Positions 12,664 to 63,680 of a stretch of 64,000 nt of DNA are shown piece after piece. The DNA is taken from NCBI GenBank assembly GCA_016193585.1, contig JACPRW010000001.1, positions 59,171 through 123,170 of the forward strand, read 5' to 3'. Numbering within the stretch: position 1 is the first letter of the stretch; each line of letters begins with the position of its first letter. The notes beneath the pieces were generated by a model. The model worked only from the letters and a program-made list of their open reading frames with translations. It was not told where the DNA came from and did not search any database. Source of the stretch: Candidatus Aenigmatarchaeota archaeon. Its GTDB lineage: Archaea > Aenigmatarchaeota > Aenigmatarchaeia > GW2011-AR5. The position numbers and the translations under genes are program-made.

Positions 12664-12826
12664 CTGCGTAGTTTATGTGACGTATTATTAGCAGTTATCT
12701 ATATGCAAACTGCGTTGTATGGTGAATTGCACTGGTTATGTCCTGATATTATTTGCAATTCACCTATAGAAAATTGCGCGTTAATACGACATAACAGAAA
12801 TTTTTATTTACTGGTTTCACTATAAA
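12655..12826. repeat. cluster of four TATAG-terminated hairpin elements (F2, F3-fragment, F5, F4-partial, F1-half)
   Basis: tatagataactgcgtagtttatgtgacgtattattagcagttatctata, then tgcaaactgcgttgta, then ggtgaattgca...tgcaattcacc, then aaaattgcgcgttaatacgacataa. The element supplies the stop codon (TAA 12661-12663) of the upstream ORF. Confidence 0.8.
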
Positions 12827-12849
12827 AGCTTTGCAGTTCTATCCTAACC

Positions 12850-14121
12850 ATGAAGGCGGTAGCTGTCGTCGGCATGCAGTTCGGTGACGAGGCGAAGGGC
12901 AAGATTGTCGACGTGCTCTCGAACAGTAGGGACGTTGTTGCAGGCATTCGTTTCGCCGGCGGCAACAACGCAGGACACACGGTCGTGTTCGGCGGCAAGG
13001 AATACAAGCTGCATCACATTCCTTCTTCCATCTTCCACGGCAAGCTTTCAGTCATCGGGCATGGCACCGTGGTCAATCCTGGCGTACTGCTCGATGAAAT
13101 CAGGCAGCTCGGTGCGCTTGCTGAAAACCTGCGCATCAGCCCCAATGTCCATGTCATCATGCCGTACCATATACATGAGGATGTGCTGCTCGAAGCAAAA
13201 AAAAGCAGCAAGGTCGGTACGACCGGTAGGGGCATCGGCCCGTGCTATGCCGACAAGGCGAACAGAATCGGCATCAGGATAAGGGAGCTGTTCGACGGGG
13301 AAAGCCTGAACAGGAAGCTTGAATTCCTGATTCCGCTCAAAAACAGCACGCTGCAGCACGCATACGGCTGGGACGGTGCGCTGGACAAGGACGCAATTGC
13401 GATGGAGTATGCAGCATACGGAAAATTCCTGAAAACGTATGCTTTTGATGGCACAGTACCCGAAGGAACCGTCCTGCTTGAAGGGGCACAGGGCGCACTG
13501 CTGGACATTGACATGGGAACGTACCCGTTCGTGACGTCGTCGCACCCGACTATCGGCGGAGCGCTCGCCGGTTCAGGCATGCCGAAAGCAGACGCGGTCG
13601 TGGGCGTCATGAAAGCATACACAACAAGGGTGGGCGAGGGGCCGTTCCCGACCGAGCTGACAAACGAGGTTGGCGCGAAGCTGCGGCAGGAAGGCAGGGA
13701 ATTCGGCACGACTACCGGCAGGCCGCGGCGAGTAGGATGGCTTGACATACCCATGCTGAAGTACGCGGCCCGCGTCAACGGCGTTACAGCACTTGCACTC
13801 ACCAAGCTCGATGTTCTGGCAGGCATGCCTGAAATCAAAATCGCCGTTGTCTACGATCGTGCCGGCATACAAATTAATGCACTATCCCATGCGACTGACG
13901 TGGCAGATGCAACGCCGGTTTATGAAATAGTGAAGGGATGGAAAGCGCTGTCTCAGGAACAGTGGAATGCACTTGCCCAGGAAGGCTTTGCAGCGCTCCC
14001 TGAAGAAGCGCAGGAATATGTCAGGCTTATCGAGCGCAGCCTTGCCGTGCCTGTTGCGATTGTTTCAGTTGGTGCAGACAGGAATGCAACGATATTACGG
14101 AAGCCTCTTCACGAATTATAG
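12850..14121 (+). CDS. purA: Adenylosuccinate synthetase
   Basis: MKAVAVVGMQFGDEAKGKIVD...GTTGRGIGP...GTTTGRPRR. The stop TAG (14119-14121) lies inside the TATAG terminus of the downstream element. Confidence 0.9.
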   Translation: MKAVAVVGMQFGDEAKGKIVDVLSNSRDVVAGIRFAGGNNAGHTVVFGGKEYKLHHIPSSIFHGKLSVIGHGTVVNPGVLLDEIRQLGALAENLRISPNVHVIMPYHIHEDVLLEAKKSSKVGTTGRGIGPCYADKANRIGIRIRELFDGESLNRKLEFLIPLKNSTLQHAYGWDGALDKDAIAMEYAAYGKFLKTYAFDGTVPEGTVLLEGAQGALLDIDMGTYPFVTSSHPTIGGALAGSGMPKADAVVGVMKAYTTRVGEGPFPTELTNEVGAKLRQEGREFGTTTGRPRRVGWLDIPMLKYAARVNGVTALALTKLDVLAGMPEIKIAVVYDRAGIQINALSHATDVADATPVYEIVKGWKALSQEQWNALAQEGFAALPEEAQEYVRLIERSLAVPVAIVSVGADRNATILRKPLHEL

Positions 14122-14360
14122 ATAATTGCGCAGCTTATGTCGTATTAACGCGCAATTTTCTATAGGTGAATTGCAAATAATATCAGGACATATAGTGAAC
14201 CAAGTAAATAATCAGGTATTATATCTTGGTTCACTTACACCCAAAAAGCAAAGCTTTTTGGTGCACCGGAAAACTTTGTTTTCCGCGTGTAGCGGACAAC
14301 AAAAGTATTATGTCGGTATTCTTTTGTTGGTCCACTATAACCAGTGCAATTCACCATATA
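14117..14360. repeat. hairpin-element cluster: F4, then F5 split by a nested 150-bp element
   Basis: F5 appears intact at 41585-41632 and 55822-55870. Here it is interrupted after ...caggaca by an insert with TIRs TATAGTGAACCAAG / CTTGGTCCACTATA. Confidence 0.8.
14191..14340. mobile_element. about 150-bp MITE-like element nested in an F5 hairpin (TIR TATAGTGRACCAA, TA/ATA target duplication, three internal hairpins)
   Basis: A second copy lies at 57646-57793 in opposite orientation (roughly 95% identity by eye). The F5 halves on either side reconstitute the intact element. Confidence 0.7.
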
Positions 14361-14397
14361 ATCGTACCTTTAAAAACCTGACCCATCTATAACGTAT

Positions 14398-15405
14398 ATG
14401 GCAGCAAAGGATTACAAAATCGCCACACTGGGAAGCCACACGGCGCTGCAGATTCTCAAGGGCGCCAGGGACGAGGGCTTCGAAACGATCGCCGTATGCA
14501 CCCCCCAAATGGCACCGGTATACAAAAATTTCCGCGCTGCGGACAAATTTATCGAGATTTCCTCGGTGAAGGACTTCTTCTCCGTCGAGGAGCAGCTCAT
14601 CAGGGAGAACGCCATCCTTATTCCACATGCCTCGCTCATCACGTACCTTAATCTTGACGCCATAGAACGCATGCGCGTCATGTACTACGGGAACAAAAAA
14701 ATATTGCGGTGGGAGTCGGACCGGCTGCTCGAGCGGAAGCTGCTGCAGAACGCGGGGCTGAAGCTGCCGCGCATCTTCGACTCGCCTGCCGGCATCGACC
14801 GGCCGGTCATCGTCAAGTTCTACGGCGCCAAGGGCGGCAAAGGCTATTTCGTCGTGAAGAATGAAAAGGAATTCGAGGAGAAAATGAAGCAGGAAACAAC
14901 CGGCGAGCAGTATATCATACAGGAGTACATCGTCGGCGTGCCGCTCTATGCCCATTACTTCTACTCGCGGATGAGCAGCGAACTGGAAATCATGGGCTTC
15001 GACAAGCGCTACGAATCGAACGTCGACTCCATCGGCAGGATAGCAGCGAAGGACCAGATGAACCTTAACCTTGAAACGTCGTACAACATCGTGGGCAACA
15101 TTCCGGTGGTGGTCAGGGAGTCGCTGCTGCCGCAGATTTTCTCCATGGGAACTGAGACCGTGAAAGCAGCGGAGGACGCCGGCGGCCTGTTCGGCCCTTT
15201 CTGCCTCGAGATGATCATCACGCCGCAGCTCGATTTCTACGTGTTCGAGCTTTCTGCGCGCATCGTCGCCGGCACCAATCCCTATATCGCCCATTCTCCG
15301 TACACCTACGTGCGCTACAACGAGCCGATGAGCACCGGCAGGCGCATCGCACGGGAAATCAGGGAAGCGATAGCAGCAGACAGGCTGGACGAGATTCTTG
15401 GGTAG
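14398..15405 (+). CDS. purP: 5-formaminoimidazole-4-carboxamide ribonucleotide synthetase (PurP family, ATP-grasp)
   Basis: MAAKDYKIATLGSHTALQILKGARDEGFETIAVC... is the archaeal PurP signature. Confidence 0.8.
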   Translation: MAAKDYKIATLGSHTALQILKGARDEGFETIAVCTPQMAPVYKNFRAADKFIEISSVKDFFSVEEQLIRENAILIPHASLITYLNLDAIERMRVMYYGNKKILRWESDRLLERKLLQNAGLKLPRIFDSPAGIDRPVIVKFYGAKGGKGYFVVKNEKEFEEKMKQETTGEQYIIQEYIVGVPLYAHYFYSRMSSELEIMGFDKRYESNVDSIGRIAAKDQMNLNLETSYNIVGNIPVVVRESLLPQIFSMGTETVKAAEDAGGLFGPFCLEMIITPQLDFYVFELSARIVAGTNPYIAHSPYTYVRYNEPMSTGRRIAREIREAIAADRLDEILG

Positions 15406-15409
15406 TGCT

Positions 15410-16510
15410 ATGATGAACAAAGCCGCTGGGGACGCCATCGTCAGCAAGTACAGCAGGAAGGCAATAACCATTGCAACGATCGGTTCCCACTCGGCGCTCG
15501 ACGTGTGCCGCGGCGCAAAAGATGAAGGGTTGCAGACCGTTGTCGTCTGCCAGAAAGGCAGGGAACAAACATACACGAAGCACTATAAGGTCGTAGTCGA
15601 CCACCCGCTGCTTGTCGACAAGTTCAGCGATGTCGCCAGCCCAACTGTGGTGGCGCAGCTGCAAAAGCTGAACGCGGTTTTTATCCCGAACCGCTCATTC
15701 GAAGTGTACGTGGGCGACTACAGCAGGATCGAAGCGATGGAAATCCCCTTCTTCGGCTCGCGCAGGCTCCTGCGTTTCGAGGAGCGGAACGAAAGCCCGA
15801 ACCAGTACACGCTCATGGAAAAGGCGGGCATCAGATTCCCGAAGCGTTTCGCATCGTCTGATGTTATAGATCGCCTCGTTATCGTCAAAGCAGCAGAGAG
15901 CGAGCGGAATTTCCAGCGCGAGTTCTTCTTTGCTTCATCGCCTGTAGATTTTGAGCGGAAAGCAAGGCAACTTATCGATAGGGGACTTGTTCATGGCAAG
16001 CAGCTCGACAGCGCTGTTATTGAAGAATTTGTTATCGGCGCACACATCAATTTTAATTTCTTCTACTCACCGCTCAGGAGGCGGCTGGAACTCATGGGCA
16101 CTGATTTCAGGCGGCAGACCAACCTTGATGGCTTGCTCAGGATTCCGGCGAAAGAACAGTCAGAATTTACCGTCAATCCAAGCCTCAAAGAAGCAGGCCA
16201 TGTCGCCGCGACCGTGCTCGAGAGCATGCTCGAGAAGGCATTCGGGCTGGGCGAAGCGTTTGTCGATGCGTGCCAACCCTATGGCGGCATCGTCGGCCCG
16301 TTTGCACTGCAGTCAATCATTACGCCCGGCCCGCCGAAAGAAGACATCGTCGTCTATGACGTCAGCCTGCGTATCCCCGGCTCGCCGGGCACGATGTTCA
16401 CACCCTATTCCTACTATCTACACGGCAAGCCGCTGAGCGTCGGCCGACGCATCGCCATGGAAGTGCGGGAAGCCGCGGAAACCGGGCAGCTGGAGAAGGT
16501 GGTGACGTAG
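15410..16510 (+). CDS. purP: PurP-family ATP-grasp paralogue
   Basis: KAITIATIGSHSALDVCRGAKDEGLQTVVVC... is the same family. The start is ATG 15410, or the track's GTG at 15398. Confidence 0.75.
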   Translation: MMNKAAGDAIVSKYSRKAITIATIGSHSALDVCRGAKDEGLQTVVVCQKGREQTYTKHYKVVVDHPLLVDKFSDVASPTVVAQLQKLNAVFIPNRSFEVYVGDYSRIEAMEIPFFGSRRLLRFEERNESPNQYTLMEKAGIRFPKRFASSDVIDRLVIVKAAESERNFQREFFFASSPVDFERKARQLIDRGLVHGKQLDSAVIEEFVIGAHINFNFFYSPLRRRLELMGTDFRRQTNLDGLLRIPAKEQSEFTVNPSLKEAGHVAATVLESMLEKAFGLGEAFVDACQPYGGIVGPFALQSIITPGPPKEDIVVYDVSLRIPGSPGTMFTPYSYYLHGKPLSVGRRIAMEVREAAETGQLEKVVT

Positions 16511-19466: not shown

Positions 19467-22159
19467 ATGGTAGACATTTTATATATTTTTTCAGGTTCAC
19501 CGTTGCTCTACATTCTCATATTAACATTAATTGCATTAGGTACATTCCTAATCTGGAAGTCATTCAAAACAAAATATAAATTCATTTTTTTAGGGGTTTT
19601 AGGCTTGGGAATAATCACTGTTCTCCTATTTTCTTTTATTAATACTCAACAAGGATCACCTGAACCGGATGCATCTGGAAAATCAGGCTACACATTGACT
19701 CTAAAAGAAGTGTGGGGTTCGAAGAGATGGATAAAGACCTTCGAAAGGCCCGGTAGTGATTATCCATTTGCAGTTCTGCAAACCTCTGACGGCGGGTATG
19801 TGGTTAGCGGGAGAACAAATAACGGCACGAAAGATTGCTATGGCGGGACCCCTATGATTTTAACATTCCTTTTCAAGACAGACGCGGATGGAAACAAAGT
19901 CTGGGAAAAGTTTCATTACGCTGGCAGAATAGTTTCAATCCAGCAGACTTCTGACGGAGGGCTGGTGGCTACAGGATCAATAGCTGCCACTGACACAGGA
20001 ATTGATGTTTACCTTGTAAAAACAGACGCGAAAGGCAGTATTACTTGGGAGAAGAGCTATGGTGAGAGTGATCCCGAGGGAGGATTTTCCGTCCAGCAGA
20101 CTTCTGACGGAGGGTATATCATTGCGGGGGGGGGACAGGTAGACGCTTGGGAAATCAAGGGATTTACTTGCTTAAAGTTGACAGCAACGGAAACAAATTG
20201 TGGAGCAGGATATTCGCCAAAGATTTAAAGACGGATGAGGAACCGCAACTGGTCCAGCAGGCTGCTGATGGAGGCTATATAGTTGTTGGGTGGAGGAAAT
20301 CGCAAGGAATGCCCAGCATAAAAGAAGACCCTAATGACCCATACATTGATGACGACGTCTATTTGCTAAGGACTGATTCATTAGGGAATAAGATTTGGGA
20401 GAAGACGATTGACGCATTTGGGAAGCGTGCAGACGAGAGGCTTGTGCATGATGCCTTGCAAACACCTGACGGAGGTTATGTAATTGTTGGAGGCTCAGCA
20501 CCCATTGTAAGATCAAATGGCGCACTACAAAGTTCGAGCCCCTATGTCTATTTGCTCAAGATTGATTCTGACGGGAACAAAACATGGACGAAGGATTATG
20601 GTATGGGAATTGGTCATTTAGTTCAGCTAACGTCCGACGGCGGTTACATAATCACTGGAGAGGTAATAGACAACGTGGGTCCAAATTACCTTGTGAAGAT
20701 AGGAACGGACAGTGACGGGAATAAGTTGTGGGAGAAACCCATTGAAATACTTAATACATATCAGGGCAAGGATTACCCAAATGTGGTTAAGCCAACCTTT
20801 GACAGCGGCTACATAGTCCTTGGAACCAGAGAATATGGCGACCTTATGGGATATGCCGGCATGCTGGAATCTGATACCCTGCTCATGAAGATAGAAGAAA
20901 CAGACACACTAAGATTGCCGGATTATGAGCGGGTACCGCCGCGTGAAACGAAGTTGCCCACCCAAGTTGAGCTACTGACTCCGACGGGAAAAGGATGGAT
21001 GAAGACAGTTGGAGGGAGTTTAGGCTCAAAGGCGCGAGCCGTGCAGAAGACATCTGACGGAGGCTATATAGTTGCAGGTTGGACTCATCGTAGTGTGACA
21101 GTACCTTATGGATTGAACGACACGACAGTCCTGACACAAAGGGAAGCATATATTGTTAAGACAGATGGAAATGGAAATAAAGTTTGGGAGAAGAGCTTTG
21201 GAGGAGATGGGTTTGAAGACGGGTTTTCAGTACAGCAAACCCCTGACAGCGGGTATATGGTTCTTGGAATCAAGGAGGCATATGCCTATCTGATAAAAAC
21301 AGATGCTTATGGAAACACGCAGTGGAATAAGACACTTGGTGAAAATTATGGTGATGTGGGTTTTTCACTCCTGCAGGCTTCTGACAGTGGATACATAATT
21401 GTTGGGATTACACAAGGCCATGGTGCGACCCCGTGTAACGCAAAAGAACCTGAGCGAGGCGCATCAGCTGATGTCTATATCATAAAGACTGATGCTGACG
21501 GAAACAAATTGTGGGAAAAAGTAATTGGCGGAACGCATATGGATATAGGATATTTTGTGCAGAAGACTTCTGACGGCAATTATATAATAACTGGAATGAC
21601 AGCTTCATTTAGTGAAAAAGGAGTCGAGGATGTTTACCTGCTTAAAATAGACAGCCATGGCAACAAATTGTGGGAAAAGGCAATTGGGGGGGACAAAAGC
21701 GAGATGGGCTATTCAGTACAACAAACTACTGACGGCGGTTATGTAATTGTTGGGCAAACAGTTTGGTCAATCAAAGGAGCAGATATGGGTGAAGGGGGTT
21801 ATGCTAGCCAGTCAGATATCTATTTAATAAAAACAGATACATACGGGAACAAAATCTGGGAAAAGACGTTTGGGGGGAGTTCGATGGATAGGGGATTTTC
21901 AGTGCAGCAGACTTCCGACGGCGGGTACATCATTACCGGAGACACAGACGGGCATCTTTACCTCTTCAAAACAGATGCAGACGGGAATAAAGTCTGGGAA
22001 AAGGCATTCAAAAGAGACGAGACCAAGCCATTCACGGGACGGTCTGTCAAGCAGACTACTGACGGCGGGTACATGGTTGTTGCAAATACGTTTTACACGT
22101 CAACACCTGCCTATCAGCCTATAATACTCATAAAGACAGACGCAAACGGGGATGTGTGA
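19467..22159 (+). pseudogene. secreted multi-repeat beta-propeller-like surface protein, frameshifted at a G9 tract
   Basis: It has an N-terminal TM/signal segment and 15 or more roughly 55-aa repeats (QQTSDGGYII.G....D.YL.KTD..GNK.WEK..GG). ORF 19467-20228 (frame 0) and ORF 20147-22159 (frame 2) share the same repeat and join if the G9 run at 20126-20134 gains one G. Confidence 0.6.
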
Positions 22160-23087
22160 AATTGTGAGAAAAACAATTTTTATAATCCCTTTGCTGATTT
22201 TGATTGTTTTTGTCAGTGGCTGCGTCGGGCAGGGACCTGGCATGAATCCGACTGTAATAACCGGCAAGACAACCATTGAGAAAAGCGGTTTGTACGTCTT
22301 GAACAGCGACATCTCCTGCACCGCCGAAGGTGAAATGGACGTATGCATCGATATACAGAGGCATGACGCTGTGCTTGATTGCCAGGGTCACAGCATAACT
22401 CTGGCGAATCAACAGGCCCGCCGCGGCCCTGCCAGTACCGGGATATACATAGCTGGCAGCGGCGTGGAGGACGTGACTGCCAGGAATACCGTCAGGAATT
22501 GCAGGATTGAGAACTTTGCATTCGGCATATTCCTCAAGGCCAGTTCCAACAACTTCATCAACAACACCATCAGCAACAATGGCATCGGAATCTACTACGA
22601 CGACTTTTCCTCGTACAACATTTTCATAAACAACACGGTGAGTAATAACAACAATAGAGGCATCTACCTGTTCATGCGCTCGTCCAACAACAATTTTACA
22701 GGCAACATTGTAAGAAACAATAGCATATACGGCATCATTATCACCTGCGCGGCACACCACAACACCTTTTCCAACAACGTGGTTGAAGGCAACGGATACG
22801 GCAGCACGAGTGACGAGAACGGCGGAATCTACATCCTCAACTCATACGCCAACGTCTTTTCAGGCAACGGGATATGCAACAACTCGAAAACCATTAAATG
22901 CAAGTTCGATGCCACAATGGAAGGCATAAGTGATATCTGCAGGCCGCAAGTCCTTCCAGACACCATTCCAATTGACAGGGATGCACAGGAAGCCGGAAAC
23001 CTCATTGACGGCGGGGGAAACACCTGTGGTCCGAGCTCCATGAGCTGCGACGGCACCACCATAAGCTGCATCAGGGGTTGCCCATGA
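22152..23087 (+). CDS. right-handed parallel beta-helix (NosD/pectin-lyase-like) lipoprotein
   Basis: Lipobox FVSGC, then N/G-rich approximately 22-aa repeats (NNTISNNGIGIYY, NNTVSNNNNRGIYL, ...). Confidence 0.65.
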   Translation: MCEIVRKTIFIIPLLILIVFVSGCVGQGPGMNPTVITGKTTIEKSGLYVLNSDISCTAEGEMDVCIDIQRHDAVLDCQGHSITLANQQARRGPASTGIYIAGSGVEDVTARNTVRNCRIENFAFGIFLKASSNNFINNTISNNGIGIYYDDFSSYNIFINNTVSNNNNRGIYLFMRSSNNNFTGNIVRNNSIYGIIITCAAHHNTFSNNVVEGNGYGSTSDENGGIYILNSYANVFSGNGICNNSKTIKCKFDATMEGISDICRPQVLPDTIPIDRDAQEAGNLIDGGGNTCGPSSMSCDGTTISCIRGCP

Positions 23088-24604
23088 AAAATCTGGCTAT
23101 TTTCTTTTTATTGTTTATTTCAATAGCACTTATCAGCGGCTGTGTCCAACAACCGTCTAAACTAAAGGATTCAGAAACACCGGGCTATGCATCATCAGGC
23201 ACAACCGGCAAATATCCGGAACAAAATCCAGATTGTGCAAACTCAGGTGTGAAAACCTGGGCAAAAGTGTTTGGCGGGCCTGGATTTGATTATGCAACTT
23301 CACTCCAGCAAACTCCTGATGGAGGGTATGTGGTTACTGGACTCCTTAATTCCGGACCGACGGACTCGACCGGCGAAAAGCAGTATGATGTCCTTTTGTT
23401 CAAGGTTGATATGGACGGGAACAAAGTATGGGAGAAGTCGTACGGGGGGAATGAGAACGATTTCGCATTCTCACTGCAACAGACTGCTGACGGTGGATAC
23501 ATTATCGGAGGAGAAACGCGTTCCTTTGAAGATAAAGGTGCCAATGCCTATCTTATAAAAACCGATGCCGATGGCAATCTGCAATGGAACAGGACATTCG
23601 ATATGTGCGGAGGAAACGAGTCTGACAGGGTACTCTCAGTGAGGCAGACTTCTGATGGTGGGTACATAAGTGCAGGCGTTACATTTTCCTGCAGCCAAAA
23701 GCTCTGGGGGGAACAGCTCCCATGGGACGACTCCTTCCTTCTTAAAACAGATGCAAACGGTAATATGTTGTGGGAGCGCATTTTTGGATGGAAGGAGAAC
23801 ATAGACCAGGCGCTTTCGGTCCAGCAGACCTCTGACGGAGGATTCGTGGCCATCGGATACATACACTATTATGACCCAAACGGACCTATCTATATCTATG
23901 GACGAGACATTTACTTGGTAAAAACTGATAAAGATGGAAACATACTGTGGAACAAAACATTCGGAATCGGTAACAAGACATCTCTTGGAAACGGATTGAA
24001 TAATGCGGAAGTGTTACAGCAGACTTCCGATGGAGGATATGTGGTTGCCGGACAAGGAGCCGACAGACGACTATATCTGCTGAAAGCTGATGCGAACGGC
24101 AATAAAGTCTGGGAAAAATCAATTGGAGATCTGAATTTGCATAGCAGGGGATACTCTGTAAAGGAAACAACTGACGGCGGCTACTTCATTATAGGGGCAC
24201 GATGCATTCCAGACTATGAACCGAGAACCATAATTGTCGACAGTAATGTTATTCTTGAGCATCCATGTGAGTTCTACTTCCTGAAAACTGATGCGAACGG
24301 AAACATAGTATCGGAGATGTCCGGCGGGCGCACTTTCAATGGCGTGCTATGGCCAGGCCAGCAGACTCCTGACGGGGGATACATAATTGTTGAAACTGTA
24401 TTCCCAAGAGTGAGCGCGACCCAGTATGCAAAGACGACTGACATCCTCATGATGAAGCTGAATGAGAATGGAGTTGTATGTAACCTTACTTATGGCCAAC
24501 CCTGCACACTGGTGCCTGAGCCAGAGTGGATAAACAACCCCGCATGCAAAAATCTTATTTATGATGAAGAGTACATTCACAATCCCTATCTCCCAGAGCG
24601 ATAA
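23078..24604 (+). CDS. beta-propeller repeat lipoprotein (same repeat family as 19467-22159)
   Basis: Lipobox LISGC, then repeated QQTSDGGY...YLLK.DANGNKVWEK units. Confidence 0.65.
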   Translation: MPMKNLAIFFLLFISIALISGCVQQPSKLKDSETPGYASSGTTGKYPEQNPDCANSGVKTWAKVFGGPGFDYATSLQQTPDGGYVVTGLLNSGPTDSTGEKQYDVLLFKVDMDGNKVWEKSYGGNENDFAFSLQQTADGGYIIGGETRSFEDKGANAYLIKTDADGNLQWNRTFDMCGGNESDRVLSVRQTSDGGYISAGVTFSCSQKLWGEQLPWDDSFLLKTDANGNMLWERIFGWKENIDQALSVQQTSDGGFVAIGYIHYYDPNGPIYIYGRDIYLVKTDKDGNILWNKTFGIGNKTSLGNGLNNAEVLQQTSDGGYVVAGQGADRRLYLLKADANGNKVWEKSIGDLNLHSRGYSVKETTDGGYFIIGARCIPDYEPRTIIVDSNVILEHPCEFYFLKTDANGNIVSEMSGGRTFNGVLWPGQQTPDGGYIIVETVFPRVSATQYAKTTDILMMKLNENGVVCNLTYGQPCTLVPEPEWINNPACKNLIYDEEYIHNPYLPER

Positions 24605-40430: not shown

Positions 40431-40527
40431 TATAGTAAACTGCGTTACTTAGGTTACATACTACAACGCAGTTTGCATATAAATAACTGCTAATAATACG
40501 TCACATAAACTACGCAGTTATTCATAT
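40431..40527. repeat. hairpin elements F3 + F2 (reverse orientation)
   Basis: tatagtaaactgcgttacttaggttacatactacaacgcagtttgcatata + aataactgctaataatacgtcacataaactacgcagttattcata. Confidence 0.8.
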
Positions 40528-41537: not shown

Positions 41538-41634
41538 TATAGATAATTGCGCAGCTTATGTCGTATTAACGCGCAATTTTCTATAGGTGAATTGCAAATA
41601 ATATCAGGACATAACCAGTGCAATTCACCATATA
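41538..41634. repeat. hairpin elements F4 + F5 (intact F5)
   Basis: tatagataattgcgcagcttatgtcgtattaacgcgcaattttctata + ggtgaattgcaaataatatcaggacataaccagtgcaattcaccata. Confidence 0.8.
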
Positions 41635-41705
41635 ACCATCAAAAGAAATAACCGGCATGCAGGGCGCAGCGTTGTGTCTCCCGAAAGAGACACCGGACAT
41701 GCTTT

Positions 41706-50070: not shown

Positions 50071-50436
50071 CTATTTTACAAACTCCACATTCTTCATGCC
50101 TGCAAAAGCATCGTCACCGGTAAGGAATTTTAAGTTATTTCCCAATGCGAACGCATACCCTATGCAGTCTGCATACGAGAGGCTTTTCTTCTTGTTTTTG
50201 AGGCGAAATGCTGCTGCGGTAAGCAGAATTTCATCAGAAACGTCGACCTCTGCATCCCTGAATCTCTGGAAAGCTCCTTTTGCAGATGCTCCGTCCAACT
50301 CGGAGAGAATTATATAAACGAGCTCCACGAGATTAAATTTTGTAGTGGCGATATCCTCCCCGATAAATTTGAGATAGTTCGGGTTGTTTTTCGTGATTTC
50401 GATAAGCGCATACGTATCAAAGAAGTAGTTTACCAT
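50071..50436 (-). CDS. vapC: PIN-domain toxin VapC
   Basis: MVNYFFDTYALIEI... and conserved acidic positions (D..E..D). Confidence 0.7.
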   Translation of the reverse strand: MVNYFFDTYALIEITKNNPNYLKFIGEDIATTKFNLVELVYIILSELDGASAKGAFQRFRDAEVDVSDEILLTAAAFRLKNKKKSLSYADCIGYAFALGNNLKFLTGDDAFAGMKNVEFVK

Positions 50437-50642
50437 CCTTTACGCGCCTCATCCTTGAGCTTTTGTGCCGGGGTTTTCCATTGTGGAAACATGCCGAAAA
50501 CGTCCTTCACTTTGACCTGTTTTTTAATGTGCACGCGTATATTCTGGTCCGGTCGTATCCCTTCTTCCTTTACCACCTCACGCGGAAGTATAATGCCTAT
50601 TGACCCGCCGATCTTTCTCGTTTTGCACACTACTTCTGCCAT
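50430..50642 (-). CDS. vapB: AbrB/MazE/SpoVT-fold antitoxin VapB
   Basis: KIGGSIGIILPREVVKEEGI swapped-hairpin motif. It overlaps vapC by 7 nt. Confidence 0.65.
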   Translation of the reverse strand: MAEVVCKTRKIGGSIGIILPREVVKEEGIRPDQNIRVHIKKQVKVKDVFGMFPQWKTPAQKLKDEARKGW

Positions 50643-50690
50643 ATGAATCTGTTACATATTGTTTAATTAAGTATAAAAAGATTTAATTCA

Positions 50691-50785
50691 AGCCACCGAA
50701 GGGAATTGAACCCTTAACCTGCAGTTCAATCGGAAGGTTTCTCCTCTTACAAAACTGCTGCTCTGCCAGGTTGAGCTACGGTGGC
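50691..50785 (-). tRNA. tRNA-Thr(UGU) with 21-nt intron in the anticodon loop
   Basis: Hand-folded as GCCACCG-TA-GCTC-AACCTGGCA-GAGC-A-GCAGT-TTTGTAA-[agaggagaaaccttccgattg]-ACTGC-AGGTT-AAGGG-TTCAATT-CCCTT-CGGTGGC-T. Every stem pairs and the anticodon is TGT. Confidence 0.8.
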
Positions 50786-50828
50786 GTCATCCAAATTGTA
50801 TTCCTGGGTGAAAATTTAAATTAAAGTT

Positions 50829-51173
50829 CTATTCTAGACCAAGACTAACAATTATGGCTTCGTCAACTTCTCGCATCTTTCTATACGACAATTTTCCATA
50901 TTTTTTTATTATTCTTGATTTGTCTATTGTCCTTATCTGGTTAAGCAGTATTGTAGACTTTTCCTTAAGCGGCGAATCTATAGTCTCGGTTTCAACATTT
51001 ATTGGAAACTGTTTGGAATATGTTTTCGTCGTTATAGGCGCTATGATGGTAGTTGGACTGTATTCGTTTCCTATGTCATTCTGAATAATTAATGCAGGTC
51101 TTGTTTTTCCTTGCTCAGAACCAGTTACAGGATCTAAATTGACAAGAACTATATCTCCACGCTTAATTTGCAT
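50829..51173 (-). CDS. mazF: MazF/PemK family endoribonuclease toxin
   Basis: MQIKRGDIVLVNLDPVTGSEQGKTRPALIIQND is the PemK/MazF N-terminal signature. Confidence 0.75.
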   Translation of the reverse strand: MQIKRGDIVLVNLDPVTGSEQGKTRPALIIQNDIGNEYSPTTIIAPITTKTYSKQFPINVETETIDSPLKEKSTILLNQIRTIDKSRIIKKYGKLSYRKMREVDEAIIVSLGLE

Positions 51174-53730: not shown

Positions 53731-54441
53731 TTAAAGGTTGCGCCTTGAGGCAAGGTTTAAATATGGTACTGCCGCCGAACCAGCGCCGTTGCCGGCATGT
53801 GCAGGGCAATGCAAGCTTTCGTAGGCGCACGTGACGCTGCTTCCCCGGTCATGGGACAGCTTTTTTGCCGCGTACATAGCGGTGTCAGCCCGTCCAAGGA
53901 GTTCATGAGGGGTTGCCGGCTGTTTTCTGCGCGGGTTGTACGTTGCAGTGCCCGCTGCCAGCGTGATGCGGTGGGCACCGTCGAACGGGTAGCTGTCGAT
54001 GGAAGTTCCCAACCGGTTTGCCGCTGCTATGGCGCCGCGCCTGCCGGTTTCAGGCATGATGACGACAAATTCGTCGCCGCCATAGCGGATGACACTGTCA
54101 GAGTTCCGCATCCCGGTGACAAAGATAGCCGCGGCAGTGCGCAACAGCTCATCCCCAGCCTGATGGCCATAGGTGTCGTTGAACGGCTTGAGTCCGTTGA
54201 TGTCGAGCATGACGACAGACAATGACCGCTGGTAACGGGAGGCCCGTGCTGTTTCATCAAAGAGTATGCCATCCAGTTCCTCGCGACTGTACACGCCGGT
54301 AAGCGTGTCGTAGCGGGGCATTCGTACCTTGGTCCACCACCTGAGATTGACGAGCAGCCGCTCTGCCACCACCTGTCTGAGGAACGCGGCTACCGCTGGG
54401 TCATGCTCTGCCAACCCAATGATAGATTGTTGTATATCCAT
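53731..54441 (-). CDS. GGDEF-domain diguanylate cyclase (no obvious sensor domain)
   Basis: ...LDINGLKPFNDTYGHQAGDELL...RYGGDEFVVIM...ADTAMYAAKK are canonical GGDEF motifs. Confidence 0.75.
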   Translation of the reverse strand: MDIQQSIIGLAEHDPAVAAFLRQVVAERLLVNLRWWTKVRMPRYDTLTGVYSREELDGILFDETARASRYQRSLSVVMLDINGLKPFNDTYGHQAGDELLRTAAAIFVTGMRNSDSVIRYGGDEFVVIMPETGRRGAIAAANRLGTSIDSYPFDGAHRITLAAGTATYNPRRKQPATPHELLGRADTAMYAAKKLSHDRGSSVTCAYESLHCPAHAGNGAGSAAVPYLNLASRRNL

Positions 54442-54553: not shown

Positions 54554-54830
54554 GGGGTCATGGTATAACCAGGTAGTACGGCAGGCTCCAGACGGCTCCT
54601 TTTCTTCGAAAGAAAAGTAGCCGGCAGTCAAAAGAACGAACTGGAGCTTTGAGCTGCGTAGGTAGCAATGATAAGATTCCGCAGGAGGGAATCAGGAAGA
54701 ACTTGATCTTCAAAGAGCAGAGCTCTTTGAGAGCTCAAAGAAGCGAAGCTTCTTTGCAGCAACTGAAGGGAATCTGGGTTCCCTGCGGTTAAGAAACCTG
54801 CTAGTCGGGGTTCAAATCCTCGTGGCCCCA
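54554..54830 (+). tRNA. tRNA-Trp(CCA) with an approximately 204-nt intron (54592-54795) carrying C/D-box-like motifs
   Basis: Hand-folded: acceptor GGGGTCA/TGGCCCC, D-stem GTAT/GTAC, anticodon stem GCAGG ...(intron)... CCTGC, loop CTCCAG|A, T-arm CGGGG-TTCAAAT-CCTCG, discriminator A. The intron contains ATGATAA (C-box-like), CTGA (D box) and TGGAGC complementary to the anticodon region. Confidence 0.65.
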
Positions 54831-55678: not shown

Positions 55679-55743
55679 GATTAAAAGTATTTGTGACCAT
55701 CAGTATATCTGACACAGTTCTTGTGATTTTTATGGCAGAACAT

Positions 55744-55910
55744 TATAGTAAACTGCGTTACTTAGGTTACATGATATAGATAATTGCGCAGCTTATGTCG
55801 TATTAACGCGCAATTTTCTATAGGTGAATTGCAAATAATATCAGGACATAACCAGTGCAATTCACCATACAACGCAGTTTGCAGTCACATAAACTACGCA
55901 GTTATCTATA
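55744..55910. repeat. hairpin-element cluster F3(half)-F4-F5-F3(half)-F2(half)
   Basis: tatagtaaactgcgttacttaggttacatgata | tagataattgcgcagcttatgtcgtattaacgcgcaattttctata | ggtgaattgca...tgcaattcacca | acaacgcagtttgcag | cacataaactacgcagttatctata. Confidence 0.8.
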
Positions 55911-57599: not shown

Positions 57600-57645
57600 T
57601 AGTAGAATAATGCGTTCAAAGGCTTTATAATATAATATAGCGGAC

Positions 57646-57793
57646 CAACAAAAGAATACCGGCATATTACTTTTGTTGTCCGCTACACGCGGAAAACAAA
57701 GTTTTCCGGTGCACCAAAAAGCTTTGCTTTTTGGGTGTGTATCATATCTTGGTTCACGTACGATTATTTACTTGGTTCACTATAAATGCCAAC
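57646..57793. mobile_element. second copy of the ~150-bp MITE-like element (reverse orientation relative to 14191-14340)
   Basis: tatagcggaccaacaaaag...ccggaaaacaaagttttccgg...caccaaaaagctttgctttttgggtg...cttggttcac...ttggttcactata. It has three internal perfect hairpins and TATAG termini. Confidence 0.7.
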
Positions 57794-57934: not shown

Positions 57935-58029
57935 TATAGTTAACCAAGTAAAGAATCCGGATATTATAACTTGGTTCACTATATGTGACCAACTTGTGTA
58001 ATACCTGAATATTAAGTTGGTCAGCTATA
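57935..58029. repeat. two adjacent small hairpin elements (tatagttaaccaag...cttggttcactata ; tatatgtgaccaactt...aagttggtcagctata)
   Basis: Perfect 9-10 bp inverted repeats with 20-nt loops and TATA termini. Confidence 0.75.
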
Positions 58030-61579: not shown

Positions 61580-61775
61580 GTAATACCCCTCGCAACGCAT
61601 CCGCTTATGCGAGTGCGTGCTCAAAGAACCTTTTGTTCTTTGGCAGCTCAGAGAGCTCTGCTCTCTGCAGCTATCCCCTATTACATCTAGTGTAACACGT
61701 CGGGAAAACTATAAAAGTGAGGAATGGGAACAAGCTTATAAATCTGCTGGACGTAGTACTATTCCGTACCCACTG

Positions 61776-63445: not shown

Positions 63446-63680
63446 AATCCCCTTTGTGACCACTGCCTAAAGGCAGTGGCTTCTTGAGGATTTCTTTCGA
63501 CTTCGTGCAAAGGACTTCTTAAGAAGTCCTTTGGCGACTTAGAAAATCTCTGCTTTTCCCAAGTCTTCCCCTTCATATGGTGGAATCTCAGAGATTCCAC
63601 CTATGCAGGTGGTGTTTTACTCCACCAAGCATCCCACACCTAAAGGTGTGGGTTTTCGAAGAGGTCAAAATAAAATAAGC
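63446..63680 (+). terminator. array of five consecutive short-loop hairpins downstream of pgiA (possible terminator/structured RNA)
   Basis: ccactgcc-taaa-ggcagtgg; caaaggacttct-taa-gaagtcctttg; ggtggaatctc-aga-gattccacc; ggtgg..ccacc; cccacacc-taaa-ggtgtggg. The first, together with the preceding gaaatcccc, recurs at 7247-7280. Confidence 0.4.

Follow-up and report, generated by a model that had tools for sequence, protein, structure and literature searches.

The MITE families SM1-SM4 of Sulfolobus and those of Halobacterium and Haloquadratum have identified parent IS elements, and the Correia elements of Neisseria (CREE/NEMIS) duplicate a TA target. Archaeal MITEs are small, non-autonomous TIR elements that lie in intergenic regions, reach tens of copies per genome and are mobilised in trans (PMC10969869), and the IS630/Tc1-mariner family occurs in archaea (PMC13343696; see also PMC2170065). 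The TIRs of Correia elements start with TATAGTGGATTAACAAAAA (PMC5039591), their TATA-rich ends can complete promoters, and their TIR hairpins are found in transcripts (PMC2649163). The REP families consist of short palindromes outside genes whose stem has a GTAG or CGTC tag at its foot (PMC3733652), and REPs and REPINs have been proposed to be mobilised as hairpins (PMC3733652; bioRxiv 10.1101/2021.07.10.451892).

Here we describe a repeat element of about 150 bp from an uncultured DPANN archaeon, found in a window of 64 kb, by which we mean the whole stretch of DNA that was analysed. The first-pass annotation had proposed that this element is either a MITE-borne sRNA or a transposon-end structure. 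A mobile element is indeed indicated by a filled and an empty site, TIRs, TA flanks, two copies and a superfamily of related modules, whereas the sRNA part of the proposal gains no support from the sequence. We estimate a probability of roughly 0.7 that the element is a non-coding, non-autonomous, MITE-like mobile DNA repeat.

In its general behaviour, the element resembles the Sulfolobus SM1-SM4 and the Halobacterium/Haloquadratum MITEs. However, covarying modular palindromes and nesting in each other's loops are not among the features described for archaeal MITEs (PMC10969869). The element also resembles the Correia elements in being non-coding, intergenic, TATA-rich at its ends and of a size within their range of approximately 70-157 bp. 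Correia elements, however, are bacterial and possess a single conserved TIR, whereas the host of this element is archaeal, many stem variants are present, each end is a complete palindrome, and there is no IHF-site core. The start of the Correia TIR and the right TIR of the element (TATAGTGGACCAACAAAAG) agree at 16/19 positions and diverge after these first 19 nt. This level of agreement is within chance, as 1/862 control TATAG sites reaches 16/19 and the window has approximately 125 such sites (p ~0.14). Homology to Correia elements was rejected as unproven, given that the 26-bp Correia inverted repeat was not found and that 16/19 is not significant.

Results and Discussion

Layout of the element and its two copies

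Copy 1 was read from the sequence as a 149-nt stretch with TATAG at its start and CTATA at its end (Table 1). It is composed of two ~48-nt palindromic modules, each bounded by TATA and inverted with respect to one another, with a 47-nt cargo of two mini-palindromes between them. The element has no coding capacity, and only spurious ORFs overlap the 149 nt. Thus, it is shorter than ~500 bp, non-coding, equipped with TIRs and present in multiple copies at unrelated loci, as is usual for MITEs. The TIRs are imperfect (TATAGTGAACCAAGTAAA vs TATAGTGGACCAACAAAA, 15/18 identical), and one degenerate pattern fits both with 0 mismatches.

Three perfect hairpins had been annotated at 14191-14340. All three are present, and hairpin A is perfect over 9 bp, but hairpin C contains a 1-nt bulge, and the 9-bp stem claimed for hairpin B forms only 8 pairs, its ninth position being an unpaired C.C or G.G. 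These hairpins had been placed between the TIRs. A fourth hairpin (14194-14235) lies within the region that had been called a TIR. Beyond a 1-nt bulge, the stem of hairpin A gains 2-3 extra pairs, and this hairpin carries a run of five T residues (T5) on either strand.

Table 1. Coordinates of the element, its component hairpins, its relatives and its host modules in the window.
Feature	Position	Strand	Description
Element copy 1	14191-14339	+	TATAG...CTATA; 147-nt excision restores the empty host module; boundaries ambiguous by 3-nt ATA
Copy 1, TA-duplication model	14193-14337	+	Element of 145 bp; TSD at 14191-14192 and 14338-14339
Terminal module 1 hairpin	14194-14235	+	11-bp stem AGTGAACCAAG/CTTGGTTCACT; AT-rich 20-nt loop; outer arm is the left TIR
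Mini-hairpin A	14241-14261	strand-neutral	CCAAAAAGC-AAA-GCTTTTTGG; 9 perfect bp, 3-nt loop
Mini-hairpin B	14267-14285	strand-neutral	CGGAAAAC-TTT-GTTTTCCG; 8 perfect bp, 3-nt loop; 5 nt after A
Terminal module 4 (hairpin C)	14290-14339	-	GGACAACAAAAG-(15 nt)-CTTTTGTTGGTCC at 14294-14333; arms 14294-14305 and 14321-14333, 8+4 bp, 1-nt bulge, 15-nt loop; outer arm is the right TIR
Element copy 2	57636-57784	- (inverted)	Hairpin C 57636-57686, B 57690-57708, A 57714-57734; module 1 broken
Inverted segment in copy 2	57739-57761	strand-neutral	23 nt flipped vs copy 1; read from the alignment
Closest cargo-less relative	57935-58029	+	Two-module dimer with stems GTTAACCAAGT and GTGACCAACTT; lacks mini-hairpins; R1 53.4 + 38.5 bits
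Module Z	14117-14164	-	ZY unit (99 nt), first half; TATAG of the module and purA stop codon overlap
Host module Y, left half	14161-14192	+	Loop interrupted by the element
Host module Y, right half	14338-14362	+	ACCAGTGCAATTCACCATATAA
Module Y, intact and empty	41582-41634	+	...GGACA[TA]ACCAG...
Module Y, second intact copy	55819-55871	+	Part of the ZY unit inserted at a TA of the module X loop (55743-55880)

The two full copies in the 64-kb window lie in unrelated intergenic contexts and have sharp TATAG/CTATA borders, and the central 22-mer of the element occurs twice in the window against 0.01 expected. The second copy had been recognised in the first-pass annotation, although its span had been given as 57646-57793, a shift of approximately 10 nt. 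Likewise, the three stems A, B and C had been said to be kept in both copies. This is correct, but since the copies are 97% identical across the A-B-C stretch (103 nt), the retention of the stems carries no information. Three substitutions distinguish the copies, two in the loop of hairpin C and one A/G difference that produces a C.A mismatch in copy 1 and a C-G pair in copy 2; none of them is compensatory. The fourth hairpin has been lost from copy 2 because a 23-nt segment is inverted there, which turns the module 1 hairpin into a direct repeat of GTGAACCAAG.

Insertion of the element into another module

A 99-nt repeat unit that we refer to as ZY is intact at 41538-41636 and at 55775-55873, and is interrupted at 14117-14362. 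When exactly 147 nt are excised from 14190-14339, an intact module Y is restored (GGACA-TA-ACCAG). The insertion of the element thus took place at a TA within another module's AT-rich loop and lengthened that site by exactly 147 nt. The empty site contains TA/ATA a single time and the filled site contains it at either border of the insert; because ATA repeats there, the boundaries of the junction are ambiguous by three bases and the duplication is 0-3 nt long. If symmetry is assumed, the most economical interpretation is an element of 145 bp (TAGTG...CACTA) with a duplicated TA on either side. The junction would fit an insertion after (C)ATA just as well as a TA duplication.

In a second case of nesting, a ZY unit resides at a TA within the module X loop. 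An intact module X is found at 40431-40481, and the copies compared are not identical at two neighbouring bases. No polymorphic empty allele was seen at the element's own two loci. The central 22-mer of the element had 0 matches in the collections of genome contigs and metagenome contigs, and a 23-mer of the commoner ZY unit had 0 matches in metagenome contigs. The degenerate TIR pattern had 26 matches in viral contigs, which is about the number expected by chance (hand estimate), and the inverted partner was found in none of them.

A superfamily of TATA-bounded palindromic modules

Many palindromes of 47-53 nt that are bounded by TATA on both sides are present in the window. The 64 kb contain 19 strict TATA...TATA palindromes, while 651 kb of other genomes contain 3, all weak and AT-rich, and shuffled sequences give 0.04. 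A covariance model, R1, that was built from 23 oriented modules produces 45 matches at about 29 distinct loci in the window, and 0 in 550 kb of control genomes. Its matches include terminal module 1 (14191-14238, 40.5 bits) and terminal module 4 (14287-14339, minus strand, 35 bits). Thus, the two end hairpins of the element belong to this large superfamily.

The constant parts of the modules are a TATAG foot and an AT-rich loop motif of approximately AATAAT-CNGG-TATTAT. The stems, in contrast, are variable: they are 10-14 bp long and represent at least 15 module types with differing stem sequences in which complementarity has been kept. In alignment A2, double-sided changes are seen in 13/15 stem pairs, and the number of compensated cells is 69 as compared with 26.7 ± 4.2 in shuffles, with 0/500 shuffles reaching 69. 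The covariation score in the same alignment is 0.443, against 0.09-0.18 for slid partners. Mismatches on the oriented strand comprise 4 G.T and 10 A.C, indicating no wobble bias for either strand. When RNAalifold was applied to the module alignment, no structure was predicted because single-nucleotide bulges shift the 3' arms out of register, and it was replaced by an explicit structure count and an MFE-based pair table.

Adjacent modules have exactly one TATA in common. Inverted doublets of approximately 100 nt are common among the modules, and half-modules joined at their loops are also present. All of the module clusters are either intergenic or overlap a stop codon only.

The window contains a second small repeat family, composed of paired, perfect 8-9-bp mini-palindromes with 3-nt loops, at 54705-54762 and 61617-61672, and also at 63460-63652. 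The pair at 54705-54762 lies within a tRNA-Trp intron and the pair at 61617-61672 lies just upstream of pyrG. These two pairs are clearly homologous to one another (score 28.5 vs -4.8 in shuffles). The A/B cargo of the element has a like architecture and shows weak homology to them (score 6.0 vs -6.7 ± 3.8 in shuffles). Perfect mini-hairpins as a whole are approximately 5-fold enriched in the window (~18 vs 3.4 expected). The tRNA-Trp(CCA) gene (54554-54830, plus strand), which is missed by default ARAGORN and by Rfam gathering, has a 204-nt intron in its anticodon loop, between positions 36 and 37 (ARAGORN). This intron resembles a C/D-box sRNA (weak sn2991 match) and has three short perfect hairpins inside it.

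Proposed mobilisation of the element

A MITE-like element of this kind would be moved in trans by an enzyme from elsewhere in the genome, with the conserved TATAG foot, the loop motif and either the hairpin or the TIR as its presumed recognition features. Candidates are a TA-duplicating DDE transposase of the IS630/Tc1-mariner type and a structure-recognising single-strand enzyme, and any effects on neighbouring genes via the TATA-rich ends or T5 runs would be secondary. As with IS630/Tc1-mariner MITEs, the target is TA, it is apparently duplicated, and the TIR of approximately 20-26 bp is sufficient for a bipartite HTH DNA-binding domain. A TA-duplicating DDE enzyme thus fits the junction and the ~24-bp length of the arms. 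However, the length of the duplication is ambiguous, and a scan of 40 ORFs of the window revealed no transposase domain, IS630-type or other. The diversity of the stems also argues against one sequence-specific transposase, as at least 15 stem sequences are hard to reconcile with a single enzyme that binds the TIR by its sequence. Furthermore, a single TATA that is common to neighbouring modules is not predicted by a simple TA-duplication model for independent insertions.

We consider it unlikely that the same mobile repeat is moved by another mechanism, in which single-strand hairpins are recognised by their structure, as in REP/REPIN-RAYT systems or in PATE ends derived from IS200/IS605. An HUH tyrosine transposase would insert next to a short (C/T)ATA target without true duplication, and the 3-nt ambiguity of the junction permits an insertion of this type. 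The exactly one TATA that neighbouring modules have in common and the frequent inverted doublets speak for this mechanism. In addition, stems that vary freely yet remain complementary, next to a constant TATAG foot and loop motif, agree better with recognition of a hairpin structure than with recognition of a TIR sequence. Templated correction of quasi-palindromes, which is an established mutational mechanism, could nevertheless keep the arms complementary without selection or an enzyme.

A conserved short tag, variable but complementary stems, mosaic clusters and inverted doublets are features that the modules have in common with REP/BIME/REPIN sequences. They differ from these in that the modules are two-fold symmetric, with TATAG/CTATA on both ends, whereas the REP tag is one-sided and the GTAG or CGTC tag that defines the REP superfamilies (PMC3733652) is absent. 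They also differ in having AT-rich stems and loops of 18-23 nt. Subterminal hairpins are found at both ends of the element, but these ends are two-fold symmetric; IS200/IS605-derived PATEs have strand-asymmetric ends with subterminal hairpins and insert 3' of a fixed 4-5-nt target without duplication. None of the 40 window ORFs that were scanned is a Y1/HUH or a RAYT gene, while IS200/IS605 is more widespread in archaea than any other IS family (PMC13343696).

A broader version of this mechanism, which we regard as unlikely, holds that the ~48-nt modules are the archaeal counterpart of REPs and REPINs. They would be mobile hairpins that are recognised by structure, are served by an HUH-type or novel enzyme and prefer each other's loops, and the 150-bp element would be a composite product. 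We know of no REP/REPIN-RAYT-type system described in archaea. If true, DPANN-like archaea would gain their first system of this kind, in a lineage without close sequenced relatives.

Genomic setting and possible host function

Exact protein matches (MBI2970842-MBI2970866) assign the window to a 157,853-bp contig of a MAG that NCBI labels Candidatus Aenigmarchaeota archaeon. The genes of the window are ordinary archaeal housekeeping genes and include a purine-biosynthesis set as well as those for FtsY, CysRS, exosome subunits, PCNA and L31e. The host belongs to an isolated lineage. In a comparison with 5.8 billion proteins, its best PurA homologue had 52% identity; the PurP relatives in GTDB representative genomes, mostly from CPR bacteria, reach 61% identity at most, and none of these offers an intergenic region for comparison. 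The purA stop (14121) and the purP start (14398) enclose copy 1 of the element, and the distance from copy 2 to the geranylgeranyl-reductase-like gene downstream of it is 36 nt.

It is compatible with a mobile origin, although in our judgement distinctly unlikely, that the repeat has been co-opted as a cis-regulator, be it a bidirectional archaeal terminator or insulator, a TATA-box donor or a 3'-UTR stabiliser. For a terminator, the relevant feature would be GCTTTTTGG of hairpin A, which is present on both strands and provides the first T5 after the purA stop. A bacterial-type terminator scan, however, detects no terminator at A or B of either copy, the reason being that the T5 is part of the stem. 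The bacterial-type (intrinsic) terminator reading of A and B was rejected, as a GC-rich stem with a T tract was not found.

The archaeal TATA box is located at about -26. Read by eye, the terminal TATA of a related module together with flanking AAAG yields TATAAAAG at -29 to -22 of the purA start, and TTATAAAG adjoins the end of copy 2 at -31 to -24 of the downstream gene. In contrast, purP has its own box, TTTAAAAA, at 14369-14376, outside the repeats. The restriction of the clusters to intergenic regions and stop codons is consistent with a regulatory role, and Correia elements act comparably in Neisseria (PMC2649163), yet the modules are absent from many intergenic regions. The TATAAAAG sequence, at 12821-12828, is centred approximately 26 nt upstream of the purA ATG, which is the archaeal TATA-box geometry for a leaderless mRNA. 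Module ends may supply promoters with TATA boxes or overlie existing ones.

Folding of the element and the question of a small RNA

The RNA MFE of copy 1 is -54.9 kcal/mol for the plus strand and -58.1 kcal/mol for the minus strand, with z values of -7.7 and -8.5 relative to shuffles, and that of copy 2 is approximately -53.6 kcal/mol, with a z value of about -6. When DNA parameters are used, the folding value is -37.6 and z is -9.3. Folding of both copies, which the first-pass annotation had suggested as a check, thus confirms structures far more stable than those of shuffles (z -6 to -9), on both strands alike.

The very stable predicted structure would suit a genuine gene for a small structured RNA (MITE-borne sRNA), or an RNA element acting in cis, consisting of the whole element or of its A/B core. 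We find this very doubtful, as the two strands fold equally, the hairpins are Watson-Crick palindromes, and the fold is just as pronounced for DNA. The best Rfam 15 matches in the region 14100-14400 score 12-18 bits, as compared with gathering thresholds of 36-117, and no family passes; over the entire window, only one tRNA passes gathering. The copies are oriented alike, 57 and 36 nt upstream of start codons, although with two copies only, a like orientation is a 50% coincidence. A transcribed context is known for the related mini-hairpin pair in the tRNA-Trp intron, but its homology to A/B is only weak. A compensatory change between the copies is absent, and one substitution instead breaks a pair in copy 1. 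In addition, hairpin 1 is destroyed in copy 2, and the module family is without a G.U wobble bias.

As judged from the sequence, every argument for a dedicated sRNA is removed, and the idea appears unsupported. We infer that the hairpins are a property of DNA palindromes and not of a selected RNA. An RNA-level side effect of the element within a UTR may occur.

Independent assemblies

The gene-proximal junction of copy 1 is reproduced in independent Logan assemblies (contigs from 4 samples), and that of copy 2 is reproduced by one Logan contig (L077) reported from 12 samples, in both cases with the copy-specific SNPs included. Since the junctions of both copies recur in independent assemblies, the arrangement is not an artefact of one assembly. 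All 8 Logan contigs recovered for the window genes (L001-L004, L048 and L075-L077) terminate within a TATA-bounded module on one side or both. These short-read breaks exactly at modules show that the repeats are multi-copy genome-wide.

The MAG and Logan L075/L076, which come from other samples, disagree upstream of purA: at 12700-12795 the MAG carries a Y module together with a truncated Z module, whereas in positions 1-60 of L075/L076 the right arm of module X and TAGCGAATGA take their place. This difference reflects either polymorphism of a module cluster within the population or a mis-join in the MAG.

That the nested arrangement is a wrong repeat-graph path in the MAG is barely credible, for although short-read unitigs end at every module and the MAG conflicts with L075/L076 upstream of purA, the junctions recur with their SNPs as described above, the internal order is identical in both copies, and the arms are only 10-12 nt long, which is below the assembly k-mer length.

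Significance

Our verdict is that the element founds a new repeat family, MITE-like and of a kind already known. No general concept would be changed by it, as MITEs, REPs and Correia-type elements already show such behaviour. If the MITE-like reading is true, palindromic mini-repeats occupy, by our own estimate, approximately 2.6 kb, or 4%, of a housekeeping window in an uncultured DPANN archaeon. This bears on MAG quality, given that unitigs stop at every module and that the MAG and other assemblies disagree at one cluster, and on annotation, given that such hairpins are easily misread as sRNAs or terminators. It also bears on biology, where the variable yet complementary stems raise the question of the mobilising enzyme.

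Other observations in the window

Two tandem purP-like genes are present at 14398-16510. Their nearest relatives in GTDB representatives are 55-61% identical and come mostly from CPR bacteria (Peregrinibacteria, Gracilibacteria and Saccharibacteria), a sequence-level pattern which suggests that an archaeal-type PurP enzyme may have moved between domains. An ORF at 53731-54441 (minus strand) has a strong GGDEF diguanylate-cyclase domain (E 4e-36). This domain is, as far as is known, unusual in archaea, and the ORF may have been horizontally acquired.

The direct-repeat families D1-D10 at 19467-24604 (plus strand) are coding repeats of beta-propeller-like surface proteins, with the motifs ...QQTSDGGY... 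and ...KTDADGNKVWEK..., and are unrelated to the palindromic modules. At 50071-51173 (minus strand), PIN-domain and MazF/PemK toxin genes are located on either side of a tRNA-Tyr(GTA) gene (50691-50785, minus strand), which is 95 nt long and must therefore contain an intron.
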